Part shown: positions 6,719-20,272 of the stretch, in pieces
Layout of the letters: each line of letters begins with the position of its first letter
Numbering within the stretch: position 1 is the stretch's first letter
From: an uncultured Nitrososphaerota archaeon
Lineage (GTDB): Archaea > Korarchaeota > Korarchaeia > Korarchaeales > Korarchaeaceae
Length of the DNA: 32,000 nucleotides
Assembly: GCA_964480775.1 (NCBI GenBank)
Contig: CAYZRF010000007.1
Location: 1 to 32,000 of the forward strand
Reading direction: 5' to 3'
Program-made: the position numbers and the translations under genes
Notes under the pieces: generated by a model
What the model saw: only the letters and a program-made list of their open reading frames with translations
Database searches by the model: none
What the model was told of the DNA's origin: nothing

Positions 6719-7764
6719 ATCTCGGTTACTTTCTTAATATCTCTGAAAGCCCTAACGTAGTTCTGTGCTTCTATAGCCAATCTTCTAGCTAATTCTCTAT
6801 TTGTAAGAAGCCTAAGAATGGCTTCAGCAAACCCCTCTACATCTCCAGTTTCAATGTATATGGCCGAATTTGGTCCGATGCACGAGACGTTCCACTTCTG
6901 GTTTGCACTAACTATCGGCTTTCCGATACAAGCCGCTTCAAGCAGGCTATAGCCCGCATTACCCGGAGCTACAAAGACAGAAGCGCCCCTAATCAGGTTC
7001 AGAGCATCTTCTCTCGAAACTGATCCAACAAAATCCACAAAATCCAAGACTTCAAGACTTTTAGCCAGCTTCTTAAGGAGCTTAAGCTGAGGTCCTCCTC
7101 CAGCGACCACGAATTTAACTTTAACTTTTCGGAGAACAAGTGGAATTGCCCTTACAAAGCTTTCAGGCCCTTTTACGGGTAAAAGCCTCCCTAGATAAAG
7201 AACATAGCTTCCGTCGGGGTTCTCCTGGATTGAACTACACTTGATACCGTGAGGAATTGTAACTATCCCTTCTTGACGGAATTTACTTAATATTTCAAAA
7301 GCCTCCTCGGTGGGGGCTACGGCAACATCTGCAGACTTTATGACATAACCAAACAGGCTGCGGTACAAGAGAGGTCTCAAAACCTTTATGTACCATCTTT
7401 CTTGAAAGCTTCTACCGACATTATGGGCAGTTAGAACGAGAGGAATTTTCCCTTTTTTTGAGGCAAGGGCTGCTATTACTGAAGTCAAATATTCCTGACC
7501 ATGTACATGGATCACATCGTGCTCTTTGCTTAACTTAAAGAAGGAGCGGGGAGAGGGAAAAGGATTGGGAATGGGTGGAAGGGGTCTGAAAGAGGAGAAT
7601 GCATGGACTTCTATACCGTCAACCTCCTTTGGAACTTTACTACATGTATAAACAACAGGCTCATGTCCCATCTTTAGGAGTTGTCTACAGAGTTCGTAGA
7701 CATGAATTTCAACTCCAGCATTAACTTCAGGTACGAAATATGGAGTGACGTGTATTATCCTCAT
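6682..7764 (-). CDS. glycosyltransferase family 4-like
   Basis: 360-aa ORF. Its ATG overlaps the stop of the upstream 859-aa gene (ATGA at 7761-7764). It carries 'YVLYLGRLLPVKGP' and '...GNAGYSLLEAACIGKPIVSANQ...'. Its 3' end overlaps the convergent gene 5552..6718 by 37 nt. Confidence 0.8.
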   Translation of the reverse strand: MRIIHVTPYFVPEVNAGVEIHVYELCRQLLKMGHEPVVYTCSKVPKEVDGIEVHAFSSFRPLPPIPNPFPSPRSFFKLSKEHDVIHVHGQEYLTSVIAALASKKGKIPLVLTAHNVGRSFQERWYIKVLRPLLYRSLFGYVIKSADVAVAPTEEAFEILSKFRQEGIVTIPHGIKCSSIQENPDGSYVLYLGRLLPVKGPESFVRAIPLVLRKVKVKFVVAGGGPQLKLLKKLAKSLEVLDFVDFVGSVSREDALNLIRGASVFVAPGNAGYSLLEAACIGKPIVSANQKWNVSCIGPNSAIYIETGDVEGFAEAILRLLTNRELARRLAIEAQNYVRAFRDIKKVTEIYLSIYESLARK

Positions 7765-10340
7765 TCTTTAACCCTTCTCCTTCTAAACTCGATGTAGATG
7801 GCTGCTGGAAGAGAAATTATGAGACTCATTATTGTGAGCCCTTCGCTTAGAGCCACGTAGCCCAGCTTCTCAAATCTTACCTCGATATCAAAGCTCCCAG
7901 AGGTTTCTGGAAAGATCAACATCATGCCAGGTCCTGCCTTAAATATCTTTAGCCTCTTGTCTCCGAGATAGGCCGACCATCCCTTGTAATAGCTTATCTT
8001 TACGAAGAGAGCATCATCAGCTTCCGCTCCATTTACATGGATTGTCAGCCTTTCAGGCATGAGATAATCAAAGTTCAAAGTAGCACTCGACTTTGGACCC
8101 TTTTCGGAAACTGCTTTGATCATCTCTTCTATAAGAAGAGACTCTTCACGATTCAAGTGATATACGGCATGGTAAGGCAGATTCAAACCAGTCCATAAGA
8201 CCTTTCCATCACCATATTCCATGACTGCGGCTAAGACCGCTTTGTCCTCATCGTAAATAAGAGGAATAGCACCCCCGCGCAGGCTTTCATTTATCGTGTA
8301 TGATATGCCGTACTCTCCTTTGGTGAACAATGAAGTGTAAACAGGTCTCGATGTCCAGTTTCCCACTAAACTTAAGTTGAAATTGCTGTTTCTCGTCCAA
8401 CAATCAGTTATTGGGAAAGGTTCTTCAAGGCCTGTTGAAGCGCCTCCGTGAGGTAGATCTCCCGTATCAAGTATCACCGAGCCCCCGCGTCTCACGTATT
8501 CCCTAAGCTTATCATAGTAATTGTTCTCGTTCAGATACCTTATTCCAAAAAGGTAAAGAACATCAAACTTCGATAGGTTTTCGAGAGATTGGACATCAAC
8601 GAACTCTCCGCCATAAACTAGCAACACATCTTCGGCTCCAGTCGGAGAGATCGCAGCGAAGGTGCGCTGATAATCTGCAAAACTACCGAAGACCATGACT
8701 TTTATCGTATCAGATCCTATTAGTTCAACTAAGGAGGAATTGAAGTTCTCTACTTCATAGAGAAAGAGGAAATCAGAGACCCCTACAAGGCCCTCTCCAA
8801 ACCTAGGATTGTAAAAGAACCTAACATTGTACTGATTTGAAAAATATCTCAAATACGATGGGTCCGACAGAAATAAGAGATAATACCAGAAGGTATAAGC
8901 AAAATCGTTAATCATTTCAACTTGCAGGCTTCCTCCGCTCAAACCTACGTCTGTATAAAGATCAAGCCTCCAAATCCACTCTATCATATCTGTAGCAAGT
9001 CTTTCTCCTTTTCTGGCGTTGTTCCTCAACCATAACATATCTGGCGGGATTTCGGTCTCTATTAGTTTGTGGTGAGGAGCAATATTCACAAAAACCTCTC
9101 TTATCGCAAAGAAGGATGCTGAGACAAGTATAAGCACTAAAAGAATTGCGAATTTCTTCTTATAGGAGGATAGTACCTTCTGGGTGAGATAACCTGCAAT
9201 TAGAGCTGAAAACAAGGAAAAATACGGGGAAAACCTATTTGGCAGAGGAAAAGGGACTTTTAAAATCGGGAAAAGGAGCACAATGAAACTAATTATGAAA
9301 CCCACAGCAGAAAGCTTAGAATAGTCAGCTTTTTTGTCTTTGACAAGAATTGGCAACCCGATAAACGCCAGAGCTATCTGACCTGTGCCTGGAGACCACA
9401 AGTTCCTCTCATAATTAATTCCAAATATCCTCTTTAGGTGATCAAGGATTAACTCGCTCTTGGGTGGGGCGCCAGCTGGCAACAGCCCTATCTGCCAACC
9501 ACGAGTAACTTGAGAATAGCCTCCCTCGATAAAGAAGGGGATCCACCACCAGGCCGATAGCCCAAAACCGACAAGAATTATGCCCGCAAGAGCCTTTGGT
9601 AGGCGTAGAGTGTACTCAGGAAGTTTTGCTCCGGGCTCAATTTTAATGAAGAGCTCTGGTTTCATTATAACCATCAAAACTGAGAAAATTAAGAGAAGAA
9701 GAACAGATATGAAGGCGTCGTGAAAATGGGACAGGGATGTTGCAGCGAAAAGAGCTCCGCCAACTAACATATCTACAGTAGACTGTGTTTCAATAGCTCT
9801 AAGGAGAAAGTAGAAAGTTCCTATGAATAGAAAAACCCCGGTTATCATAGGAATTGCTCCTACATTCCAGAAAGAGTATAGATTGTATGAAAAAGTGAAG
9901 AAAATTGAAGACGCGAGAGCACCGGTTTTTCCTAGCCCAAGCCTTCTTGATAGGAGATAAAGGAAGGCAGATCCCATACCAAAAAAGAGATAAGTGTAAA
10001 CCCTGTAAGCTTGAAAAACATGGATCCTTAGGATCCATCCTATAAAGGCCATAGCTATGTGTGAGAAGGGGGGATAAAACCTTAGGGCAGGACAACCGAA
10101 AAACCAACCATCATTCCATTGAGGTAGCCCAGGGAGGTACCTCATTATCTTGTTGACGAGTGACATATGCATAAGGGGCGATCCTTCCCAAGAGGCCCAT
10201 TTCGGAATTCCTGGAAATACTATGCTAGCGGTGATCGCCGAGACAAGAAATGAAATTATTACTAGAATAGCATCCAAAGGTACCTTTCTTGTCCTCATTT
10301 TACCACCCTCTCGCTTAGAGCCTTTCCTAACTTCAACCAT
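7761..10340 (-). CDS. large polytopic membrane protein, GT-C-like (PTPS-related/DUF2298-like) putative glycosyltransferase, with a soluble C-terminal domain and terminal TM anchor
   Basis: 859-aa ORF. Its ATG at 10340 overlaps the end of the upstream GT2 gene by 8 nt. The N-terminal ~430 aa contain many hydrophobic helices. The first loop reads '...WNDGWFFGCPALRFYPPFSH...', as I recall for the '6-pyruvoyl-tetrahydropterin-synthase-related' membrane family. The C-terminal ~400 aa are soluble, and the protein ends with the TM segment LTIMSLIISLPAAIYIEF followed by RRRRVKE. It sits inside a GT operon. Confidence 0.55.
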   Translation of the reverse strand: MVEVRKGSKREGGKMRTRKVPLDAILVIISFLVSAITASIVFPGIPKWASWEGSPLMHMSLVNKIMRYLPGLPQWNDGWFFGCPALRFYPPFSHIAMAFIGWILRIHVFQAYRVYTYLFFGMGSAFLYLLSRRLGLGKTGALASSIFFTFSYNLYSFWNVGAIPMITGVFLFIGTFYFLLRAIETQSTVDMLVGGALFAATSLSHFHDAFISVLLLLIFSVLMVIMKPELFIKIEPGAKLPEYTLRLPKALAGIILVGFGLSAWWWIPFFIEGGYSQVTRGWQIGLLPAGAPPKSELILDHLKRIFGINYERNLWSPGTGQIALAFIGLPILVKDKKADYSKLSAVGFIISFIVLLFPILKVPFPLPNRFSPYFSLFSALIAGYLTQKVLSSYKKKFAILLVLILVSASFFAIREVFVNIAPHHKLIETEIPPDMLWLRNNARKGERLATDMIEWIWRLDLYTDVGLSGGSLQVEMINDFAYTFWYYLLFLSDPSYLRYFSNQYNVRFFYNPRFGEGLVGVSDFLFLYEVENFNSSLVELIGSDTIKVMVFGSFADYQRTFAAISPTGAEDVLLVYGGEFVDVQSLENLSKFDVLYLFGIRYLNENNYYDKLREYVRRGGSVILDTGDLPHGGASTGLEEPFPITDCWTRNSNFNLSLVGNWTSRPVYTSLFTKGEYGISYTINESLRGGAIPLIYDEDKAVLAAVMEYGDGKVLWTGLNLPYHAVYHLNREESLLIEEMIKAVSEKGPKSSATLNFDYLMPERLTIHVNGAEADDALFVKISYYKGWSAYLGDKRLKIFKAGPGMMLIFPETSGSFDIEVRFEKLGYVALSEGLTIMSLIISLPAAIYIEFRRRRVKE

Positions 10341-11013
10341 ATAAACGCCACTTTAGCAGGGAAAAAAACATCTTAAACGGATCTCTCCAAACGCTGACTC
10401 TAGAAGAACCCCTATAAACGTATTTTACTGGAACATAAGAAATGGAAAATCCCTTCTTAGATGCCTTGACTAGAATCTCAGCATCTATCTCAAATCCATC
10501 TGATTTAATGGGCCAGATCTCTTTAATTACCTCTCGTCTAATGGCTTTCAGACCCGATTGCGGATCCAAGAAATCTCTTCCAAATAGAACTCTTAGAACA
10601 AGTCTGTATAGTGAACTCAGGATTTTTCTAAGCACAGATCTCTTAACATCCACTCTTTGGGCTACCACCAAATCAGCCTCTCCTCTCAAGATCTTTTCAA
10701 CCATCTCAGGTATTTTCTCGGGGGGATACTCCAAGTCCGCATCAAGTACAACTATTATTTCCCCCTTGGCCTTTTCCAAACATCTCTTTATGCCAAAGCC
10801 CTTCCCTTTCCTCTCTTTAAAGCTTAACGAATGAACAGCGTAATGTTCTCTCGCAAGTCGTTCTATGATCTGAGGGGTTCTATCAGAACTTCCTTCCTGC
10901 TCGAGAAATATTTCGAAGTCATATCCTTTTGAGGAAAGTACCTCATAAACTCGTTGAAAGCACTTTTCTACCGTTTTTTCCTCGTTGTAAGCGGGAATTA
11001 TCACAGAGATCAT
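10333..11013 (-). CDS. GT2 family glycosyltransferase, dolichyl-phosphate hexose synthase-like (DPM1/AglJ-AglD class)
   Basis: The ORF track begins at TTG 11070. I prefer ATG 11013, which gives MISVIIPAYNEEKTVEKC..., the canonical GT2 N-terminus. It also carries 'IIVVLDADLEYPPEKI' (DxD). It is small and GT-A-like, as in Dol-P-sugar synthases. Confidence 0.8.
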   Translation of the reverse strand: MISVIIPAYNEEKTVEKCFQRVYEVLSSKGYDFEIFLEQEGSSDRTPQIIERLAREHYAVHSLSFKERKGKGFGIKRCLEKAKGEIIVVLDADLEYPPEKIPEMVEKILRGEADLVVAQRVDVKRSVLRKILSSLYRLVLRVLFGRDFLDPQSGLKAIRREVIKEIWPIKSDGFEIDAEILVKASKKGFSISYVPVKYVYRGSSRVSVWRDPFKMFFSLLKWRLYG

Positions 11014-11015
11014 GA

Positions 11016-11914
11016 TCAACGCCTCTTTTGATTCACGTATAATAACAAGTGGATTGCCACGATGGAACAAGGAAAAGGGACATTTCGGAGATAAAAGTTC
11101 TACTAGTGGTGTACGGACCCTTCGTATCTTTGACGAAGAATCCCTGGCTGGTTCTTACCATTATGTGCACATCTTGGTCTTGAAATTCTATGTCGTCTAG
11201 TTTTGCTCCAATCACAATGCTTGTTCCTGAAACCTGAACGTAAGTGGTTGAGACCACTTGCCAAGAGGAACCGGTCCAGCTATACAGGTTCCCATCAGAA
11301 CTCAATTTGTAGTCATATCCGTAGCTTCCTATGCTTGGACCTCCAGCTTTGGTGTCTAAGTAAACATCGTAGAGATATAAAATAGTGCTTGGTGCAGCCA
11401 CCTCAGCCAGCCTGAAGAAAACGTGAGTTCCATTGTTAGTCAAGTAAAGTGCCTTGTCATCCACAGCGGCTGGTGAAGCATCGTCTATCGGATCAGATCC
11501 GAACTGATACCAGTCGGATGGCCATGCTAGGGAGTTATCGATATTCGTTGATATAATCACAGAGTCTTGAACTCCGTAGGTTGAGTTAACAGCCGTTAGC
11601 GTAACTTGAACATTACCAGATATAGAAGAAGGCAAGATAAGCTTGACAATAAGCGTAGCAATCCCTCCAGAAGCTACGCTTACATCTGTATAGTAATTAT
11701 CCCAGCTAACTCCATTGGAGCTATATGCGACGTGGACATCTCCCTCGTTAAATCCGTCTGTGTCCTGCCATAGGTCAACTTCGATGGTTTTAGTTGAAGA
11801 TACATTGAAGCTAAAACTCATCTCAGAGGGGCCCGTGTTGATGATATATACGTTATATGAAATGTTTGAGCCAGCTGAGCAGGAAGAGGATTGATCAGGT
11901 CTAAAAAAGTCTGC
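11016..11914 (-). repeat. copy A of a ~0.9-kb duplicated gene segment encoding the shared C-terminal module of the two surface proteins
   Basis: Long identical runs are shared with copy B. One 41-nt run, gaaacctgaacgtaagtggttgagaccacttgccaagagga, occurs at 11229-11269 and 12996-13036. 'cgtctatcggatcagatccgaactgataccagtc' and 'acaggttcccatcagaactcaa' are also present in both copies. Confidence 0.85.
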
Positions 11915-12503
11915 TGTGTAATTCACCTCTACCCAAACCTGGGTACATCTTGCCTCGGTAGTAGACGCCCCTCTTAGGTCAACACCAGCCTCCAGAGAAT
12001 CGATGTAATTCCAACTCCAAGGCTCTCCCGTACTGGGATTTGTGGTCCAAGTTCTGTAGTATGTAGTCCAGGAACTCGACAGAGTCCTACGATCTTCATT
12101 AATGTTAAAGATGCTGGGAAAATCAGTTGAACCGACCCTCAAAACTGGTCTAGTAAATACAAGCAATCCAGTCCCACTTTTCCGACATCTAACATAAACA
12201 GTTACTGAATTAATGATTCCAGATCCTTGAGAATGATTTTGGAGACTATATGTATCCCGTCCATAGGGATAAGGAGTAGTCGTGTAATAAACGTATGTGG
12301 AATCCTCATCAGGCATAGTTTCATCAACGCACTCCCAGTTTTCATTGCCGCTTGGATAAGGATTTAGAAGGTACCAACTTCCATTTCCGTCTGGCCTCAA
12401 AATCTCAGTATCTGGCTTCCCTATTATTTCTATTCTTAAATGACAAGTTGTTTCGATAAAAATTAGAAAAAGCAGAATAAATGTGAGAAAAAAATCGTCT
12501 CAC
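11016..12503 (-). pseudogene. secreted surface-protein paralog, disrupted by two 1-nt frameshifts (or a recoded gene); the intact central ORF is 11033..12400 (455 codons)
   Basis: GTG at 12503 lies 7 nt after AAGGAGG and encodes MRR. A T7 run follows (A7 on the plus strand, 12488-12494). With T6 the frame would continue MRRFFLTFILLFLIFIETTCHLRIEIIGKPDTEILRPDGNGSWY..., a signal peptide joined to the 455-codon ORF. At the 3' end, around 11062/11063, one base is missing relative to the paralog. The restored frame reads ...LFLVP(I)VAIHLLLYVNQKRR* and stops at 11016, aligning with PIATILLLVYISKKRSK* of the 1025-aa protein. Confidence 0.7.
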
Positions 12504-12778: not shown

Positions 12779-13705
12779 CTATTTGGATCTCTTTTTACTT
12801 ATGTACACAAGCAACAGAATGGTAGCGATTGGGACGATAAATAGAGGCATCTCAAATATGAACGTTCTCGTTGTGGTATATGGGCCTTTTTCATCCTTAA
12901 GGACTGTTCCTTCATAGGTTCTCACAAGTATGTGCACGTCTTGATCCTCAAATACCATGTCACTGAGGTTAGCTCCAATCACAATGCTTGTTCCCGAAAC
13001 CTGAACGTAAGTGGTTGAGACCACTTGCCAAGAGGAGCCAGTCCAGTTGTACAGGTTCCCATCAGAACTCAACTTGTAGTTATAAGTGTAATTTCCTATG
13101 TTTTGACCTCCCGTTCTTGTGTCCATGTATACTTCATATCGATAAGAGACAGTACTTGGCGTTGCCGCCTCAGCCAGCCTGAAGAAAACGTGGGTTCCAT
13201 TGTTAACTGTGTAAAACGACTTGTCATCCACGGCTGGAGGAGAAACGTCGTCTATCGGATCAGATCCGAACTGATACCAGTCAGATGGCCATGCCAGGTA
13301 ATTATCGATTATCGTTGATATAAGAACAAAGTCGTGAGCACCAGAACCCGAACCAGTTGCTGTCAGATTCACTTGGACCGTGCCTGATGCTGATGAAGGT
13401 AGGATTATCGTTACAATAAGCGTTGCGCTAGCACCAGAGGAAACACTAATGTCCGGTTCACCATTTGAGTTGCTGTCGCTGTAAACAGAATCCCATACCC
13501 CATCTCCATCTGCGTCATATGCTATGTGCGTGTCTCCGCCATCCATCCAATCTGTATCAACCCAGATGTCTACCCCAACTGACAGATTAGAGCTTCCTTG
13601 TAGGTCAAATACATCGTCTGAGGATCCAGTATTGATTAAGTAAACGTTATACGATACATTTGAGCCCGCGGCTGCTGAGAATGTCTGATTGGGCTTGAAC
13701 TCCAC
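12779..13705 (-). repeat. copy B of the duplicated C-terminal module segment
   Basis: See copy A. At the protein level the module runs from GVEFKPNQTFSAAAGSNVSYNVYLINTG to the C-terminus. It aligns with ADFFRPDQSSSCSAGSNISYNVYIINTG to the end of the 455-codon ORF. Confidence 0.85.
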
Positions 13706-15856
13706 TCCTCCTACAACAACTGTGAAAGTGGTCGAACCACAATGGGAAACCCCATTAGTCTCCTTGGACAGAACAACTACGAGGTACTCACCCGTTGGAG
13801 CCGTGGAAGATAGTGGATAATCATACCTAAATATCTTGTAAAGAGAGGGGGAACTTGGATCTGTCGTTTCCAAGGTCATGGTTTGGTTATTCACAGCCTT
13901 AGTGTTGTTGGGGAAGTATATTGTGACCCAGGCCCCCACTATATCGCCAGATCCAAAAGGATCGGTAACGTTGGCCTTGACGACAACGGTTTCCCCTGGA
14001 TTAAAGGTGGATTTCTCCGTATTCGTCTGGTCATATGTCTTCACCCATTCTAAATTGACGAATGTGGAGGTAGGTATCTCAATTCTTGAATTGTAGGTCT
14101 GAGAGTTGTAGTAAACCTCAATCCAAGGGGTAGTAAAACCTGACTCTGTAAGAACTTCTACCTTTAGAGTTATGGCATCTCCGCTTGGTATGCTGCTAAT
14201 GCCTGATATCGTGAATGTATACCAGCCAGCACTCGTTATATCGTTAATAGTATCTGAATAAACAGGACTTCCATCGTAAGTTAGGCTTACCCTAACATCA
14301 GGATATAGATACACGAAAAACCATCCAGGATGGGGTACAATGTATAAATTAACAGTTATATCATCTGAAACTATTAAATCTGATGCAAAGGGAGGAGATT
14401 GAGTCCAAGAAGCTGATCCACCGTTGCTTATGCTCTCACTAAGCGAAGAAGTTCCTTCCTGCGTCTTCAATGAGTACCCATTTCGCAAGTAAAGTTGCTT
14501 ATATATTGGATAAGCTCGGGTCTTCAGATTACATATCGGACCAACGGTTTCTGAGGATCCAGTTATGGGAGAAGTGTAAGTGGCCTTTGTTCCCTGGGGT
14601 CCTGGGGGCATGTTTATGGAGAACTGTGAACTCGATGATGGCGTGATTGATACTCTGTACCTCATCTCTGCATACGAGCCAGCAGACAGGGACCCAACAC
14701 TCCAATCGATCCTTCTATTAACGGAATCATAGGTGGCACTACCTGCTGTGGTTGTTAGAGAGTCCTGCCATGTCACATCTGATGATACGTAATCTACAAC
14801 AGCAACATTGTTTAGCGTTAAGGAAGTGGGATTGCTTATTCTAACCCTCACTTCAAATGTGCTAGTAATGCCAACGCGAGGAGGATCGGGTCCAGAGACC
14901 GTTATGTAACTCTTTGAGAGGATGGGTTTTGGAGGTGCTTCTCCTGAGTCCGTTGGTAGGTATATTTTGATAGGATTTCCATCATAATCATAGGCTTCGA
15001 CTACACCGTAGTTGCCCCCAGATCCGTAATATGTGATGTTTACCTCTAGGTGCCACAAGCCATAATCATCAGACTCTGTATCTTGCGTCCAACCAGAAAT
15101 TGTGTGAGAATTCCAGGCAGCATTATTTGAAAGTTCAGTGTCATCAAATTCATCGGAGAAACTACCAGATGGACTTGTGACTCTTATGTAACCTTGGCTA
15201 CCGCTAGCATCTGTGTCCCAATCCCACTCTCTTATGCTGAACTGGCAACCCTGATGAACATAGAGGTAAAGGTCATATTTCCTTGACTGGGAGGGGTTGG
15301 TGCCGACGCTAGCCCTGTAGAAGTAGATGTTCAGACCGTTTGCTCTTAGTCCAAAGTAGTTAATGTCATCTCCAGAAGTGACAGCACTCGAAGAATCTAC
15401 TCTTAACTCCCAGACACCACTTGAGGGGTTGGAGACCTGGTAGAAATCCCACCAAACCCCATCGCTACCTGAAGGACCCGAGGAATCTGCAGTAATTGAT
15501 GTTACCTGTGCTCCGCTGGGATCATACAACGTGAATTTCGTTGAGGTATCCCAGGAAAAACCTCTACGCCTGTCCCTGTTAGCTGATTCTTCAGCACTTC
15601 CTCCCAAACCTACATCTGGATCAAATATGTCTATGTCAAGTACTGAGGTTCCAGGAGGGACTTCTATGTAAAACGAATAGTAGGTATTTGCTCCATCGCT
15701 TGTGCTGTAATAGTCTCCATATTCTGATGGAGCCCCAGAACCCTGAACGCAGAGCCACTGTCCATTTAAAGAAGACGAAGTTGAGACGTGTTCAAAAGGT
15801 ATAGATGCTAGAAGCATCAGAACTAGTAAAATTAACGTTGATACGAGCCTTCTCAA
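12779..15856 (-). CDS. large secreted surface (S-layer/adhesin-like) glycoprotein candidate with a DUF11-type repeat and a C-terminal motif+TM+basic sorting signal
   Basis: 1025-aa ORF. The TTG start at 15856 is preceded by GAGG. The signal peptide is MRRLVSTLILLVLMLLASIPFEHV. The protein is Ser/Thr/Gly/Asp/Tyr/Trp-rich and beta-type. A DUF11-like segment reads 'VVDYVSSDVTWQDSLTTTAGSATYDSVNRRIDWSVGSLSAGSYAEMRYRVSITP'. I count about a dozen N-x-S/T sequons, mostly in the C-terminal half. The C-terminus is ...TTRTFIFEMPLFIVPIATILLLVYISKKRSK. Confidence 0.8.
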   Translation of the reverse strand: MRRLVSTLILLVLMLLASIPFEHVSTSSSLNGQWLCVQGSGAPSEYGDYYSTSDGANTYYSFYIEVPPGTSVLDIDIFDPDVGLGGSAEESANRDRRRGFSWDTSTKFTLYDPSGAQVTSITADSSGPSGSDGVWWDFYQVSNPSSGVWELRVDSSSAVTSGDDINYFGLRANGLNIYFYRASVGTNPSQSRKYDLYLYVHQGCQFSIREWDWDTDASGSQGYIRVTSPSGSFSDEFDDTELSNNAAWNSHTISGWTQDTESDDYGLWHLEVNITYYGSGGNYGVVEAYDYDGNPIKIYLPTDSGEAPPKPILSKSYITVSGPDPPRVGITSTFEVRVRISNPTSLTLNNVAVVDYVSSDVTWQDSLTTTAGSATYDSVNRRIDWSVGSLSAGSYAEMRYRVSITPSSSSQFSINMPPGPQGTKATYTSPITGSSETVGPICNLKTRAYPIYKQLYLRNGYSLKTQEGTSSLSESISNGGSASWTQSPPFASDLIVSDDITVNLYIVPHPGWFFVYLYPDVRVSLTYDGSPVYSDTINDITSAGWYTFTISGISSIPSGDAITLKVEVLTESGFTTPWIEVYYNSQTYNSRIEIPTSTFVNLEWVKTYDQTNTEKSTFNPGETVVVKANVTDPFGSGDIVGAWVTIYFPNNTKAVNNQTMTLETTDPSSPSLYKIFRYDYPLSSTAPTGEYLVVVLSKETNGVSHCGSTTFTVVVGGVEFKPNQTFSAAAGSNVSYNVYLINTGSSDDVFDLQGSSNLSVGVDIWVDTDWMDGGDTHIAYDADGDGVWDSVYSDSNSNGEPDISVSSGASATLIVTIILPSSASGTVQVNLTATGSGSGAHDFVLISTIIDNYLAWPSDWYQFGSDPIDDVSPPAVDDKSFYTVNNGTHVFFRLAEAATPSTVSYRYEVYMDTRTGGQNIGNYTYNYKLSSDGNLYNWTGSSWQVVSTTYVQVSGTSIVIGANLSDMVFEDQDVHILVRTYEGTVLKDEKGPYTTTRTFIFEMPLFIVPIATILLLVYISKKRSK

Positions 15857-15863
15857 GAATCCT

Positions 15864-16481
15864 CTACTCCCCCGGCTTTCTTTTTGCTTCTGGATTTGAA
15901 TACCGAAGGTAAAGTGAAAAGAACCCTTTCTTAGGAACCATAGGTGCTTTAGAAGTAATTACCACCTTAGAGCCCTCTATACTCACATTGAACGCGTCTT
16001 CAGGAGAAATTTTGAGTTCTTTTACCTCTGCTCCCTTTGGCAAGACAAATGTTATGGACAGATTCGTTGAAACACCTGTTAAACCTATTTTTTCCAATAA
16101 AAGGGCGATAGTTGAGGCCATATCCTCTTGGACGACGAAATCAATCCCGTCGCAAGGAGGAGAATGTCCAGTTAGCTTCAAGGATACTGATGCCTCTCCG
16201 CCTTTGAAGCTAAAGCTGACAAATTCACTTGATACCTTCAACCTCTCTGACAAAAGAGATTCGGGTTTCTTGGAGCTTCCTAGCATTTTACTAAATGCCA
16301 TCGCAGAGTCTCCAGATAATTTGATGTCTACGAAGGCTTTGGTAGACTTTTGGCTAAAAACAAATTTCAGATCGACCGAGATGGATGATGCCAATGGCTG
16401 TTGAGCATTCATCCTTACCGAGATCCCGGCGACTATCGAAAGTAACGCAATTATTATGAGAGCAGAGGCAGTTAACTTCAT
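15864..16481 (-). CDS. secreted or membrane-anchored protein of unknown function, encoded between the archaeosortase-like gene and its putative cargo
   Basis: The ORF track starts at TTG 16499. I prefer ATG 16481, which gives MKLTASALIIIALLSIVAGISV..., a signal or anchor helix, because a TATA-like box sits about 27 nt upstream. The stop lies 7 nt before the start of the 1025-aa gene. I recognise no family. Confidence 0.6.
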   Translation of the reverse strand: MKLTASALIIIALLSIVAGISVRMNAQQPLASSISVDLKFVFSQKSTKAFVDIKLSGDSAMAFSKMLGSSKKPESLLSERLKVSSEFVSFSFKGGEASVSLKLTGHSPPCDGIDFVVQEDMASTIALLLEKIGLTGVSTNLSITFVLPKGAEVKELKISPEDAFNVSIEGSKVVITSKAPMVPKKGFFSLYLRYSNPEAKRKPGE

Positions 16482-16504
16482 GATAAGTAGGTAGTCCAAA
16501 ATGA

Positions 16505-16636: not shown

Positions 16637-17401
16637 TCAAGAAGCCTCCGTCAGTTGCCCAATCGCAATCCCAGCAAAAGTTGCTAAGTAGATGAAATCT
16701 ATGAAAGTCCCAGCTAAGTAGTGGAGGAGCAGAAATGCTAGGGCTCCTACGTGGTAGAGGGTTGCTATTGTTACTGCAAGCCTCAGAATGTTCCAAGCAA
16801 CGGAAAAGAGCATAGTAGCACCCAACCAGAATAGTTTTGTGTGGAGAGGCCCTTTAAGACCAAAGACTCCTATAGAAAACGCAATCGAGATCAAAATGAA
16901 CATTAAGACCCCTGAACAAGACCAATCAACGGTTATCCAAGTTAATCTGTGGGGAATACCCCAAAATGCATTGTAGAGCAGTGCCGTTCCTGCCAACGGA
17001 GCTATTATGAACCAGAGGATCTTTATGGGGAAGGGGATTTTCTTCAGTTTCCAGATTATGAACGAGGCTATAGCTAGGTTTATCAGAATAAATACGACGG
17101 TAGATGGATCGGGCCTCTTATAAGGAACTGGAAGCTCAAAAGTCGGACCACCAGCCATGTATTTTAGTGGGAAGAGTTCAAAAAGCGATCTCGCCCTTCC
17201 CATATCGAACAGTCTATATGGAACATGGGCTATGTCTAGGAGCTTTGCTATGCTCCTTGCCTGAAACCACCAATATCCTAGGAAATTTGTACCTACTAAG
17301 TAAGTAGCAAGAGTCGAAAGAAGGAGACCTACTAAAAAATGAGCCTTTTGAAAACCAGGAAACCAGAAGGCTCTTTTTAGCTCCTCGCCTATACTCTCCA
17401 A
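16637..17401 (-). CDS. exosortase/archaeosortase-family integral membrane protein (putative transpeptidase)
   Basis: 254-aa multi-TM ORF. The TTG start lies 7 nt after GGGTGA and overlaps the upstream gene by 13 nt. The C-terminal half reads ...ITVDWSCSGVLMFILIS...(45 residues from the Cys to the Arg)...VAWNILRLAVTIATLYH...LLLHYLAGTFIDF. This reproduces the conserved Cys (xCSGx), Arg (NxxR) and His order and spacing that I remember from EpsH/XrtA ('vaeaCSGlr ... aNglR ... H..yG') and ArtA. Confidence 0.65.
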   Translation of the reverse strand: MESIGEELKRAFWFPGFQKAHFLVGLLLSTLATYLVGTNFLGYWWFQARSIAKLLDIAHVPYRLFDMGRARSLFELFPLKYMAGGPTFELPVPYKRPDPSTVVFILINLAIASFIIWKLKKIPFPIKILWFIIAPLAGTALLYNAFWGIPHRLTWITVDWSCSGVLMFILISIAFSIGVFGLKGPLHTKLFWLGATMLFSVAWNILRLAVTIATLYHVGALAFLLLHYLAGTFIDFIYLATFAGIAIGQLTEAS

Positions 17402-18066
17402 GCATCTGTCACCCTAAGTCTCTCTGGCAGCACTTTTTTGATAGAATCAACCACCTTGACTCCTTCTACTGCATAAACCTTGGTCTTTCCTAAGGCTCCA
17501 GGTTCGATATAAACCGTCTTCCCAGATACTAAGCCACCACCTTCCTCGCCCATTCCTATTACAACACCCTTAGCAACATATATTGATCCTCTAGCATCAA
17601 CGCAGTTGCCTATAATTGTCCCTTCTCCAATAGCAAGCTCTCCTTCTACAACTATGGACTTTCCAATTCCGTTCTTAGGTCCTATAACTGCATCTCCTTT
17701 CACATGAATTCCACCTTTTACTGCGACTTCTTCCTTGGAGAAGAAATTTCCTAAGACTATGAGGTTGTAAGGAATGAATTCCTTGGCTGGTACTGTGACA
17801 TCTCCCTTAATTCTGATGGTTTCAGCACCTTGAAGCCACACTTTCTGGGATTTTAAGTAAGATGGCTTCTTGTTTCTTTCTAGAGCTTTAATAGCCTCTT
17901 CAATGAGCCCCAACTCCTCCGCCCTATGTAGAATCAGCAGCTCTGGGATGTTTATCCCGTATTTAAGAAAGATCTCCTCTCTTAACATCTCAATTGTTAG
18001 CTCGCCAAATTTCTGCTTAATCAGGTTGTCAAGGGCTGAAGACCACTCTATCTCCTTTGTCATCAT
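17389..18066 (-). CDS. beta-helix repeat protein, bactofilin-like (polymer-forming cytoskeletal/DUF583-like), with an N-terminal helical domain
   Basis: The ORF track starts at TTG 18096. I prefer ATG 18066 (MMTKEIEW...), which lies 8 nt after GAGGGA. The C-terminal ~120 aa read 'VKGGIHVKGDAVIGPKNGIGKSIVVEGELAIGEGTIIGNCVDARGSIYVAKGVVIGMGEEGGGLVSGKTVYIEPGALGKTKVYAVEGVKVV'. This shows the periodic hydrophobic/Gly pattern of a bactofilin-type beta-helix. Confidence 0.5.
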   Translation of the reverse strand: MMTKEIEWSSALDNLIKQKFGELTIEMLREEIFLKYGINIPELLILHRAEELGLIEEAIKALERNKKPSYLKSQKVWLQGAETIRIKGDVTVPAKEFIPYNLIVLGNFFSKEEVAVKGGIHVKGDAVIGPKNGIGKSIVVEGELAIGEGTIIGNCVDARGSIYVAKGVVIGMGEEGGGLVSGKTVYIEPGALGKTKVYAVEGVKVVDSIKKVLPERLRVTDAWRV

Positions 18067-18076
18067 TTTACATCCC

Positions 18077-18733
18077 TCACCCTTCAAACATTCCAATAAG
18101 CTTTGAGGAATTGATTACCTCAATTCCATGTTTGGCGCTTGCCTCTCCTATCTCGCAACCTTCTGCTGCCTCAATGGTCTTTTCCGAGGTAACTTTTCTT
18201 ACGCTACAACCCTTTGAAATGACTATCTTGCCTTTGGCGTCGATCCACTCATTGACTTTATTGTTACTATCTAGAAAGATGTCTGAGTCGGAAGCAAGGA
18301 AACTTATCTCGCAATTCTGTCCCACCTTGATGTTTCCAGTTGAATAGGCTCCTCCAGTAATCTTGCAATTTCTACCAATAGAAAGATCTCCTATCACAAT
18401 AAGGAGTTCTTTCATTTCGAAGTTGTCAGGAATGTGCGTGTCTCCATAAATTAACCTAAAGTAGCCAAGATCTGAGTGAAACTTAGGTTTTTGAGTTAAA
18501 AACGTCTCTGGCGACATCCCTCCGCCATCTCTCGAGATGAAGCCTAGTTCTACGGCTGGTTCAACCCTTTCTCTTAGAAGCAGAGCTTCCTCGTTGTCAC
18601 AAATGCATCTGTCTAGGTTTATGTAAAGAGGCCCTGGATCAGCAGCTCTGTTGTACTCAATAAATCCAAGGACAAAAGGTACCGAAGCTATAGCACCGAA
18701 AAGGGCCAGTAACAAAATGTATCCGAGAATCAT
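18077..18733 (-). CDS. membrane-anchored beta-helix repeat protein (N-terminal TM plus a bactofilin/hexapeptide-like C-terminal domain)
   Basis: 218-aa ORF. Its ATG overlaps the GT2 stop (ATGA at 18730-18733). The N-terminal TM is MILGYILLLALFGAIASVPFVLGFI. The C-terminal region reads 'IGDLSIGRNCKITGGAYSTGNIKVGQNCEISFLASDSDIFLDSNNKVNEWIDAKGKIVISKGCSVRKV..EAAEGCEIGEASAKHGIEV', with about 6-residue periodicity. Confidence 0.5.
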   Translation of the reverse strand: MILGYILLLALFGAIASVPFVLGFIEYNRAADPGPLYINLDRCICDNEEALLLRERVEPAVELGFISRDGGGMSPETFLTQKPKFHSDLGYFRLIYGDTHIPDNFEMKELLIVIGDLSIGRNCKITGGAYSTGNIKVGQNCEISFLASDSDIFLDSNNKVNEWIDAKGKIVISKGCSVRKVTSEKTIEAAEGCEIGEASAKHGIEVINSSKLIGMFEG

Positions 18734-20115
18734 TCTTTTCTCACCTTCTTTCCTCCACCATTTAGGTACCTTAGTCCATTTCCGTTGTGCTGGGTCTTGT
18801 GCCAGTTATTCTTGTTATTGTTATGGTTGTTCTTGTTATTGTTCAGGTTGTTGTAATAGAGCAGGCCATTTCCAGCTTTTTTCGTTTTATGCCACTTCTT
18901 TGATTGATGCTTTCTCCTATGCAACAGAATTGCTTCGAAGAATGCAACAGTGCAGACCCAAGCATTGTGTACCACGAGTATAAGCATCGCTGGAAGAAGC
19001 CATGAGGCCCTTTTCCTACCGTCCAAGTAAGCACTGGCTACCACTTCGTTGAACATGGCGAAGTTGCCTAGGTTGGTGTAAGAGATGCTCATTGGTATTG
19101 CTATGAAGAATGAGGACCATGGCTGAGGAACAAATAGGTAAGACACTACCCCTAAAACCCAGCCCACAAAAACGAAAACTGGAAGCACAAAGGTTCCTAA
19201 GAGAAGAACACCACTAACCTTCTGCCAAAACGTAAGGAACGGGGATTTTATAACGGAGGTAAGGTGCTCAAACAAACACTGATCGTGGCCTATCGCCCAC
19301 CTTCTTAGCTGCTTACTTCTTTGCTTCCACGTAGGAACGACTTCCTCATAGGCTTCTGCTGCATTTATGTATACAAGCTTCCAACCCCCTAGGAAAATTC
19401 TGAAAGATAAATCAGTATCCTCAGCTAATTTTGTCTCGTCCCATCCTCCCAACCGCTTAAGGATGTCCCTCCTGAAGCCTCCAACCGTTCCACCATAAAG
19501 AGTTATCAGGTCTAAGTTGTACCTAGCCTGCTGGTCAACTTGATATCCAGCAGACCTTTCTAGGTCCAGAAGCCTAGTTGTTAGGCTATCGGGGGAGTTT
19601 GCTGGTACCACTCTCCCCATAACGGCACCAACTTCGGGATCATAGAACGGAGCAACAAGCCTCTTGATACAGTCCTTTGGTGGGAGGTAGTCTGCGTCAA
19701 ATGTAATTATGATATCGTTGTGTGCAAATCCTAAGGCTACGTTCATTGCTTCTGGCTTTCCATTTCCTCCGCTCTCAGTTCTATGCACCGCCTTTATGAA
19801 CGGATACTTCTCTGCAAACTCGTCAATTATTTCCCCGGTCCTGTCCTCTGAGCAGTCATTTAGTGCAATAACTTCGTACATCCCATTTTCTTTTGGATAA
19901 TCCATCTCTACAAGCCTTTGAAGAATGTGAGGAGCAACTGCCTCCTCATTATGCATCGGCACTATTATGCTGACGCTTGGTAGGTAATGCCCAGCAAGCT
20001 CCTGGTAAGCTCTTCTCTGCTTACCATAGAGCCTGTTCCAAGTGAATTTATAGTGCCTAATGGCGTAAGCCGTCATGATTGTAAAAAGAATCATGAAAGC
20101 AATTTCTAATAGCAT
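18730..20115 (-). CDS. processive family-2 glycosyltransferase (cellulose/chitin/PNAG/hyaluronan-synthase class) with an Asn/His/Lys-rich repeat tail
   Basis: The longest ORF begins at TTG 20172. I prefer ATG 20115 (MLLEIAFMILFTIMTAYAI...), an N-terminal TM preceded by GGGTG. Motifs are SVSIIVPMHNEE, NDCSEDRT (D), ITFDADY (DxD), GGTVGGFRR, AEDTDL (TED-like) and QRSKQLRRW (QxxRW), followed by C-terminal TM helices. Confidence 0.85.
   Translation of the reverse strand: MLLEIAFMILFTIMTAYAIRHYKFTWNRLYGKQRRAYQELAGHYLPSVSIIVPMHNEEAVAPHILQRLVEMDYPKENGMYEVIALNDCSEDRTGEIIDEFAEKYPFIKAVHRTESGGNGKPEAMNVALGFAHNDIIITFDADYLPPKDCIKRLVAPFYDPEVGAVMGRVVPANSPDSLTTRLLDLERSAGYQVDQQARYNLDLITLYGGTVGGFRRDILKRLGGWDETKLAEDTDLSFRIFLGGWKLVYINAAEAYEEVVPTWKQRSKQLRRWAIGHDQCLFEHLTSVIKSPFLTFWQKVSGVLLLGTFVLPVFVFVGWVLGVVSYLFVPQPWSSFFIAIPMSISYTNLGNFAMFNEVVASAYLDGRKRASWLLPAMLILVVHNAWVCTVAFFEAILLHRRKHQSKKWHKTKKAGNGLLYYNNLNNNKNNHNNNKNNWHKTQHNGNGLRYLNGGGKKVRKE
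18733..18894 (-). repeat. in-frame tandem repeat (two ~30-codon units) and Asn-codon low-complexity tract in the GT2 tail
   Basis: The protein reads WHKTKKAGNGLLYYNNLNNNKNNHNNNKNN then WHKTQHNGNGLRYLNGGGKKVRKE. The two TGG codons are at 18894-18892 and 18804-18802. The plus-strand DNA shows a repeated 'ttcttgttattgtt'. Confidence 0.8.
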
Positions 20116-20272
20116 GCTACCGCACCCTGTGATACCGACACCAATGACTTGGCTATCTTCGAATTTTCTCAACTAAGACTTAAAAAATGTGCTGTTGGCC
20201 CGTAAATTTTGCAAGTACAGCAATCAACCGATTAAATCGCGAAAACACTTTGTAGGCGTAAGATCTAAACTG

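Follow-up and report, generated by a model that had tools for sequence, protein, structure and literature searches.

What is the role of the short hydrophobic tail that ends a large secreted protein of an uncultured member of the Korarchaeia, and does it belong with the sortase-like gene located close to it? The protein is encoded within the 32,000 nucleotides of contig CAYZRF010000007.1 that were analysed here (hereafter the window), and a preliminary description of this DNA had proposed that its C-terminus carries a tripartite sorting signal. The present analysis suggests that the tail is, on balance, probably the recognition signal of a dedicated archaeosortase system; the protein is therefore called the cargo in what follows. 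The features on which this proposal depends are:

12779..15856, minus strand: cargo gene, encoding a 1025-residue secreted surface protein with a signal peptide, β-sandwich/immunoglobulin (Ig)-like domains, a conserved last domain and the tripartite tail
15770..15856, minus strand: candidate signal-peptide-like N-terminus of the cargo, MRRLVSTLILLVLMLLASIPFEHVSTSSS, read from the sequence
12830..12859, minus strand: signature motif I1000-F-E1002-M-P1004-L1005-F-I-V-P1009, with the highest conservation (0.80) in the cargo core
12800..12844, minus strand: hydrophobic segment L1005-I1019, LFIVPIATILLLVYI, 15 residues with an internal proline
12782..12799, minus strand: basic cluster S1020-K1025, SKKRSK, at the extreme C-terminus
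16637..17401, minus strand: archaeosortase-like polytopic membrane protein of 254 residues, with the TIGR04178 signature and Cys/Arg/His
16916..16918, minus strand: candidate catalytic Cys162, in DW[ST]CSG
16781..16783, minus strand: candidate catalytic Arg207, in WN..R
16721..16723, minus strand: candidate catalytic His227, in LHY..G

Anatomy and occurrence of the tail

Translation of the open reading frame (ORF) gives a cargo C-terminus that reads ...RTFIFEMPLFIVPIATILLLVYISKKRSK, the end of the frame before the stop codon being KGPYTTTRTFIFEMPLFIVPIATILLLVYISKKRSK; the span 12779..12871 holds the final 30 codons and the stop. The tripartite organization first described for this protein is thus borne out by the reading frame and by the anatomy of the tail. 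The signature motif adjoins the hydrophobic segment directly, with zero spacer, as noted by Haft for signals cut by membrane-embedded enzymes (10.1101/2023.06.07.544157), and this contact supports the interpretation of the tail as a sorting signal. At its other end the protein starts with MRRLVSTLILLVLMLLASIP..., by eye a typical signal peptide, and an equivalent segment with a basic n-region and a hydrophobic h-region is present in all complete cargo homologues (signal peptides were judged throughout by eye, from the character of these two regions). A C-terminal position, conserved motif residues, a helix followed by a basic cluster and an N-terminal signal peptide, which are used in section 5 of the same preprint for the recognition of tripartite signals, are all found in this family.

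The tail is not limited to the window, where a decayed paralog described below would regain it on repair of its frame: close orthologues of the cargo (68–81% identity) keep it, and so do very distant relatives. It makes up the final 30 residues of the window cargo and of every cargo protein of the Korarchaeota type (Kor-type). Conservation, scored over 14 cargo cores of the Kor-type and of the type found in Bathyarchaeia (Bathy-type), is highest of all cargo segments in the motif I-x-E-[MI]-P-L-x-x-[IV]-P (0.80); it amounts to 0.71 in the Ig-like domain, 0.76 in the last domain, 0.58 in the linker, 0.77 in the KD..GPY segment, 0.63 in the rest of the helix and 0.59 in the basic end. The full consensus is I-[SA]-E-[MI]-P-L-x-x-[IV]-P, followed by approximately 15 hydrophobic residues and a basic cluster, either KKR, RKR or RRKKR, with L041 as the exception. 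The glutamate of the motif core common to both types is invariant and its I, P, L and P residues are about 90% conserved. The motif originally suggested, TFIxEM/PLF/VP, was correct in placing a conserved element before the helix, but the core is neither TFIxEM nor PLF, the phenylalanine being absent in Bathyarchaeia. PLF as a motif core, by analogy with PGF and PEF, is ruled out for this reason: Bathy-type tails have PLI, PLM or PLA where Kor-type tails have PLF.

The tail was compared with the curated models of NCBIfam release 20. Submitted alone, the tail of the window yielded no match at E≤10. Neither did two of three Bathy-type tails; the third matched Heimdall-CTERM below threshold (15.4 bits, cutoff 24), and this match spans the helix and the basic part alone. 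Positive controls were PGF and PEP tails near the consensus and as long as the tail tested; they reached 55.7 bits for a cutoff of 24.5 and 38.9 bits for a cutoff of 16, respectively, each also cross-matching a dozen other CTERM models. Since the control tails match this strongly, the null result for the window tail is meaningful, and the earlier statement that it fits no named CTERM class holds.

Searches for other carriers of the tail returned one protein family. When broad Hidden Markov Models (HMMs) of the tail were run against 2,034 six-frame ORFs from all DNA collected, the cargo family alone scored at least 44 bits and everything else at most 5 bits, a gap which argues against chance as the origin of the tail. 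This motif precedes a hydrophobic helix and a basic cluster in none of the other ORFs of the 32-kb window. When 1.84 billion representatives were searched exhaustively by HMMER with the Kor-type tail profile, only P0014, P0020 (a 151-residue fragment) and the window paralog were recovered; this narrow profile missed the Bathy-type tails later found by synteny, so that divergent carriers may exist outside the search. A word-indexed search with the tail alignment gave no matches and missed the known orthologues too, so that its empty result carries no weight. Many occurrences and unrelated carriers, which are criteria 2 and 7 of Haft, are thus replaced in these searches by a single carrier family; what is found instead is the regular co-occurrence as nearby genes that the same author gives as the alternative for dedicated one-to-one systems. 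As no unrelated protein with the tail was recovered, the sequences describe what appears to be a dedicated one-enzyme, one-substrate system. The likeness to CTERM classes put forward at the outset consequently applies to the tripartite architecture and not to a class with many substrates, there being one protein family per cassette.

The archaeosortase-like enzyme and its coupling to the cargo

The enzyme encoded at 16637..17401 passes the exosortase/archaeosortase signature TIGR04178 with 32.3 bits, and the Bathy-type enzyme of locus L026 with 39.3 bits (cutoff 23); the window enzyme stays under the gathering score of Pfam PF09721 (16.5 vs. 25.7). Cys162, Arg207 and His227 are kept in 29 of the 30 distinct homologues aligned. 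The named subfamilies are not reached, with scores of 15.7–25.3 vs. 150 for ArtF, 16.1–19.3 vs. 102.75 for XrtG, 15.3 vs. 100 for ArtC and 17.2 vs. 250 for XrtT, and none of the other exosortase or archaeosortase subfamilies, ArtA included, was listed at E≤1. The AlphaFold2 (AF2) model of the enzyme (mean predicted local distance difference test, pLDDT, 79.7; predicted template modelling score, pTM, 0.76) has six long helices. Cys162 follows a loop at the start of helix 4, Arg207 belongs to helix 5 and His227 is found close to where helix 6 begins, so placing the three residues near the same ends of helices 4–6. If the positive-inside rule is applied to the KLKK that follows helix 2 and the K..K that follows helix 4, all three would be directed towards the extracytoplasmic face. 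Neither a sequence search nor a fold search with the AF2 model retrieved a relative from the PDB. Taken together with the tail, these results indicate that the enzyme may represent an archaeosortase subfamily of its own, which has a separate cognate signal and is present in Korarchaeia and Bathyarchaeia.

Downstream of the sortase-like gene, on the same strand, the cargo gene comes second, as had been described, after one gene for a 211-residue protein. Because synteny among close Kor-type loci says little, the sortase alignment was used to fetch loci from genome and metagenome collections, by means of two retrieval patterns of which one contained the Cys. The Kor-type order is glycosyltransferase family 2 (GT2) synthase, two β-helix proteins, sortase, a protein of about 215 residues, cargo, small GT2, PF10131 protein and family 4 (GT4) glycosyltransferases. 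Relatives from Bathyarchaeia, with sortase identities of 35–42%, have the order sortase, GT2 synthase, β-helix protein, cargo, then small GT2 and PF10131 protein; their cargo, of about 350 residues, combines a signal peptide with one Ig-like domain and the conserved last domain, and carries a tail such as KDKEGPYIILRNNISEIPLILIPLVTLAIYLAISSRRKKR. Locus L001, with a sortase identity of 48%, is intermediate and contains a terminal partial gene in which a signal peptide directly precedes the cargo last domain (E = 1e-9).

A cargo with the tail lies one to three genes downstream of the sortase in 19 of 19 informative loci (those that are distinct, retain the Cys and extend far enough downstream), which answers positively the question of co-occurrence with orthologues of 16637..17401; the other computational checks put forward in the preliminary description came out in its favour as well. 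The 19 loci comprise six Kor-type loci (the window, L002, the L006 group, L010, L012 and L017), the partial locus L001 and 12 Bathy-type loci (L014, L015, L025, L026/27, L028, L029, L030, L033, L034, L038, L041 and L042). Cargo size and domain content vary across them (1025, approximately 520 and approximately 350 residues) and the tail is constant. Sortase and cargo identities correlate across loci with r = 0.96, which shows co-inheritance and no more. The sole cassette without a cargo, within 10 kb on either side, is that of L043 (9989..16375). Its sortase homologue reads DWQFSG, with Phe for the catalytic Cys, and scores just under the TIGR04178 cutoff; loss of the Cys thus goes with loss of the cargo, an association that is suggestive only.

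Since the tail always occurs with its own archaeosortase-like enzyme in a polysaccharide-synthesis cluster, a protein-anchoring system probably exists in Korarchaeia and Bathyarchaeia as well. Bathyarchaeia are among the most abundant archaea of sediments. Reviews place archaeosortases in a subset of Euryarchaeota and describe them as lacking in crenarchaea (PMC6098224, PMC3387779). A literature search returned no paper linking archaeosortases with Korarchaeia or Bathyarchaeia.

Proposed mechanism, alternatives and related systems

The proposed mechanism would proceed as follows. The cargo would be exported through the Sec pathway by means of its N-terminal signal peptide and then stay in the membrane through its short C-terminal hydrophobic segment, the basic cluster remaining cytoplasmic. 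The archaeosortase-like enzyme, with Cys162, Arg207 and His227 near the outer face, would recognize the motif I-x-E-[MI]-P-L-x-x-[IV]-P, located at the outward-facing end of this segment, remove the helix and transfer the cargo to a new anchor. Such an anchor would be either a lipid, as in the case of ArtA, or something made by the co-encoded glycan machinery. The acceptor could be a lipid or a glycan, since a PgaC-like GT2 synthase, a small GT2 and a PF10131 protein are found in every cassette. A more specific version, which we regard as rather improbable, holds that the enzyme ligates the cargo covalently to the polysaccharide of the PgaC-like synthase, or to a glycan made by the small GT2 and the PF10131 protein, with no lipid re-anchoring. 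Were it true, such protein-to-exopolysaccharide transpeptidation would offer a minimal model, with a single substrate and a single membrane, of exosortase attachment and of the placement of exosortases in exopolysaccharide loci, and the three changes of L043 (no cargo, no catalytic Cys and no WxKT..GNG..Y tail on the synthase) would reflect one coupled machine. One enzyme and one substrate tied to a polysaccharide synthase cassette make a simple candidate for learning the attachment partner.

Several observations weigh against the proposal that the tail is a processed recognition signal. The sequences show the anatomy of the tail and its genomic coupling; recognition, cleavage and re-anchoring of the cargo are inferred from them. 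The tail is confined to one protein family, so that the signal is inseparable from the family, and the domain upstream is conserved nearly as well as the motif. The motif proline is replaced by Ser in P0016, in the window paralog and in L030; P0016 being intact, the Ser variant does occur in an apparently functional gene. Most Bathy-type proteins continue for 4–15 residues beyond the basic cluster and three of them for 30–50, and L041 has no clear basic cluster. As to the genomic association, the link between Cys and cargo loss in L043 is only suggestive because it concerns a single locus and because one of the retrieval patterns contained the Cys. A second sortase paralog with an intact Cys, 69% identical to that of the window, is present in the metagenome-assembled genome (MAG) B8_G17 (L013/L022) after two β-helix genes; on the contig of L013, only 2.6 kb long, the next gene is a GT4 and no cargo is adjacent, the 215-residue gene, cargo, small GT2 and PF10131 gene all being missing between sortase and GT4, and the same MAG has the full cassette L010. 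The cargo thus co-occurs with the whole cassette rather than with the sortase alone.

Part of this evidence would fit a permanent type-I membrane anchor, in which the cargo is a tethered subunit of the polysaccharide-synthesis complex that undergoes no cleavage and the juxtamembrane motif is conserved because it touches other membrane proteins of the cassette, be it the GT2 synthase, the PF10131 protein or, in the role of a scaffold, the sortase homologue. We consider this possible though unlikely. It would account for the restriction of the tail to one protein family, for the good conservation of the whole cargo core and for homologues that extend far past the basic cluster or lack it, and the Cys-less L043, which still keeps its sortase homologue, hints at a non-catalytic role of the latter. 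It is opposed by the retention of the catalytic triad in nearly all homologues, by the loss of the Cys precisely where the cargo was lost, by a hydrophobic run which at about 15 residues with a proline is short for a stable anchor, and by a conservation that is higher in the motif than in the helix; moreover, characterized members of this enzyme family process such tails (PMC6098224). The two remaining explanations concern the identity of the signal and of its enzyme, and both seem to us very improbable. According to one, the tail is a divergent member of a named class (PGF-, PEF-, PEP-, VPXXXP-, Heimdall- or Firmicu-CTERM) and the enzyme a divergent ArtF, ArtC or XrtG. The Kor-type P-L-F does resemble the P-x-F of PGF and PEF, one Bathy-type tail gave the weak Heimdall-CTERM match and ArtF and XrtG are the next-best matches of the enzyme; yet the phenylalanine is not conserved, the Heimdall match leaves out the motif, the window tail and two Bathy-type tails find no model where the controls do, and the ArtF and XrtG scores remain far from their cutoffs. 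According to the other, the tail is processed by an unlinked enzyme, e.g. rhomboid-like, of the CAAX-protease-like myxosortase type or a signal peptide peptidase, while the archaeosortase homologue acts elsewhere. Other tripartite signals are indeed cut by unrelated intramembrane proteases (10.1101/2023.06.07.544157), but no such protease is encoded in any cassette, the motif is without a Cys, unlike the MYXO, JDVT and CGP types, and the archaeosortase homologue is the only co-occurring protease-like protein.

Among the known systems, the closest analogue of the proposed dedicated archaeosortase system is the XrtG/Firmicu-CTERM cassette of Firmicutes; by analogy the present system would work like that of XrtG without being a member of it. 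In both, one exosortase-family enzyme is encoded beside glycosyltransferases and just one protein with a CTERM tail (L. plantarum has the CTERM protein, XrtG and two XrtG-associated glycosyltransferases; PMC12854382), and the host is bounded by a single membrane, without an outer one. The window GT2 synthase also matches the XrtG- and XrtP-associated glycosyltransferase models below threshold. Here, however, the host is archaeal and the cassette contains two extra conserved β-helix proteins, and with 16–19 bits vs. 102.75 for the enzyme, 57.5 vs. 364 for the GT2 (TIGR03111) and no Firmicu-CTERM match for the tail, only the gene-cluster logic is common. ArtA of Haloferax volcanii, for which experiments have shown that the tail is removed and a prenyl-lipid anchor attached (PMC6098224; 10.1101/2023.06.07.544157), belongs to the same enzyme superfamily with its Cys/Arg/His triad, and its PGF-CTERM substrates are likewise Sec-exported surface glycoproteins with motif, helix and basic tail, the motif abutting the helix. 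It differs in having from one to about 50 substrates per genome instead of one protein family per cassette, in the motif (PGF vs. I-x-E-[MI]-P-L), in the lack of an ArtA match to the present enzyme at E≤1, and in its occurrence in Euryarchaeota, whereas the system described here comes from Korarchaeia and Bathyarchaeia and from a polysaccharide synthase cassette. The PEP-CTERM/exosortase systems of Gram-negative bacteria (EpsH, XrtA) share the superfamily, a Glu-Pro-containing motif directly before the helix and, as here, a genetic association with exopolysaccharide loci (PMC1569441), but they need an outer membrane, are many-to-one and carry P-E-P instead of E-x-P, and the PEP_CTERM model did not match. 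JDVT-CTERM/MrtJ, used by Haft as the pattern for recognizing dedicated systems (10.1101/2023.06.07.544157), resembles the present case in having typically one target per genome, encoded beside the processing enzyme, whereas this enzyme is CAAX-protease-like and unrelated and its signal contains an invariant Cys that is absent here. The alignments obtained could serve as starting points for family models of the enzyme, of the cargo domain and of the tail.

Cargo domains, the decayed paralog and cassette neighbours

The conserved last domain of the cargo, WYQFGSDP...YEVYMDTRTGGQ...LYNWTGSSW, has no Pfam or NCBIfam match, and public sources annotate these proteins as hypothetical. In the AF2 model of the C-terminal part of the cargo, of low confidence (pLDDT 58), KDEKGPYTTT forms the last β-strand of the domain and RTFIFEMPLF is non-regular, followed by the helix; a PDB fold search with this model gave generic antibody-like β-sandwich matches alone, with template modelling (TM) scores of about 0.2. 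Model confidence and matches of this kind make functional inference impossible. The N-terminal 480 residues or so of the long Kor-type cargo (14400..15856) are 31–35% identical to the N-termini of P0017–P0019, proteins of 1300–1500 residues that end in a gingipain-like Peptidase_C25 domain and have no tail. As the common part is confined to the N-terminal 30–47% of the long cargo, the latter seems to have arisen by the joining of a widespread surface module to the conserved cargo core. No homologue of the cargo core domains without the tail was found among the relatives collected. The remaining genes considered in the window are:

11016..12503, minus strand (annotated ORF 11033..12400, 455 residues): decayed cargo paralog, 495 residues once two 1-nucleotide indels are repaired
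15864..16499, minus strand: 211-residue protein with an N-terminal membrane helix, between sortase and cargo, found only in Kor-type cassettes with a long cargo
18730..20172, minus strand: PgaC/NodC-like membrane GT2 synthase, in every cassette
18077..18733 and 17389..18096, minus strand: two overlapping genes for β-helix (hexapeptide-like) proteins, conserved cassette members
10333..11070, minus strand: small GT2, polyprenyl-phosphate-sugar-synthase-like, conserved cassette member
7761..10340, minus strand: 859-residue polytopic membrane protein, PF10131 (PTPS_related), 86.2 bits vs. cutoff 26.4, with a weak YfhO match

The paralog is the next gene downstream of the cargo and resembles its C-terminal half. 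Its frame breaks after ...SLFLVP, where a base missing after 11063 removes the helix and the basic tail; one base added at this point gives an end reading ...SEMSLFLVPIVAIHLLLYVNQKRR, or ...VPIVAIHLLLYVNQKRR, before the stop, so that the claim that the restored frame carries the same tail proved right. The second lesion, a 1-nucleotide indel in the T7 run 12488..12494, disrupts the signal peptide; taking one T from this run, behind a GTG start with GGAGG upstream, restores it as MRRFFLTFILLFLIFIETT... With such indels at both ends and intact neighbour genes, the paralog would be either a decaying duplicate or the product of homopolymer assembly errors. P0016, a partial orthologue on a 2.4-kb JGI contig, has a tail, ...SRTFISEMSLFLVPIVATLLVLYVTRKRRR, that is nearer to that of the paralog (11016..11100) than to that of the main cargo. 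Among the Bathy-type cargos, atypical tail ends are located at L014 7233..8552, L025 2611..4038, L034 8450..9595 and L041 6183..7256, three being extended and that of L041 being the one without a clear basic cluster; they could result from lost stop codons or correspond to a different fate of the tail.

The C-terminus of the GT2 synthase (18733..18912, minus strand) is an Asn-rich cytoplasmic tail in which the motif W-[HYD]-K-T-x-[RH]-[NS]-G-N-G-x-x-Y-[YL]-N occurs twice in the window. It is kept in Kor-type, L001-type and Bathy-type cassettes and absent from the cargo-less L043, and no Pfam family covers the region. In L043 the C-terminus of the synthase is unrelated, longer and helical, and the two β-helix proteins are fused (439 residues). 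The β-helix proteins, present in every cassette, show a weak likeness to acyltransferase left-handed β-helix models, and the one of 218 residues has an N-terminal membrane helix. The PF10131 protein of the window has no match among NCBIfam models; PF10131-type proteins may be linked to XrtG cassettes. The cargo of L033 (3202..4258) and the GT2 synthase of L028 (3743..5175), a locus with masked or N bases, are each split into two overlapping ORFs, probably through assembly errors or as pseudogenes. Finally, L012 (Kor-type, MAG B15_G15) contains only a short cargo of 519 residues (7569..9128) with a different N-terminal domain and no 215-residue gene, a layout like that of the window paralog, from which it follows that long and short forms of the cargo replace each other among close relatives.

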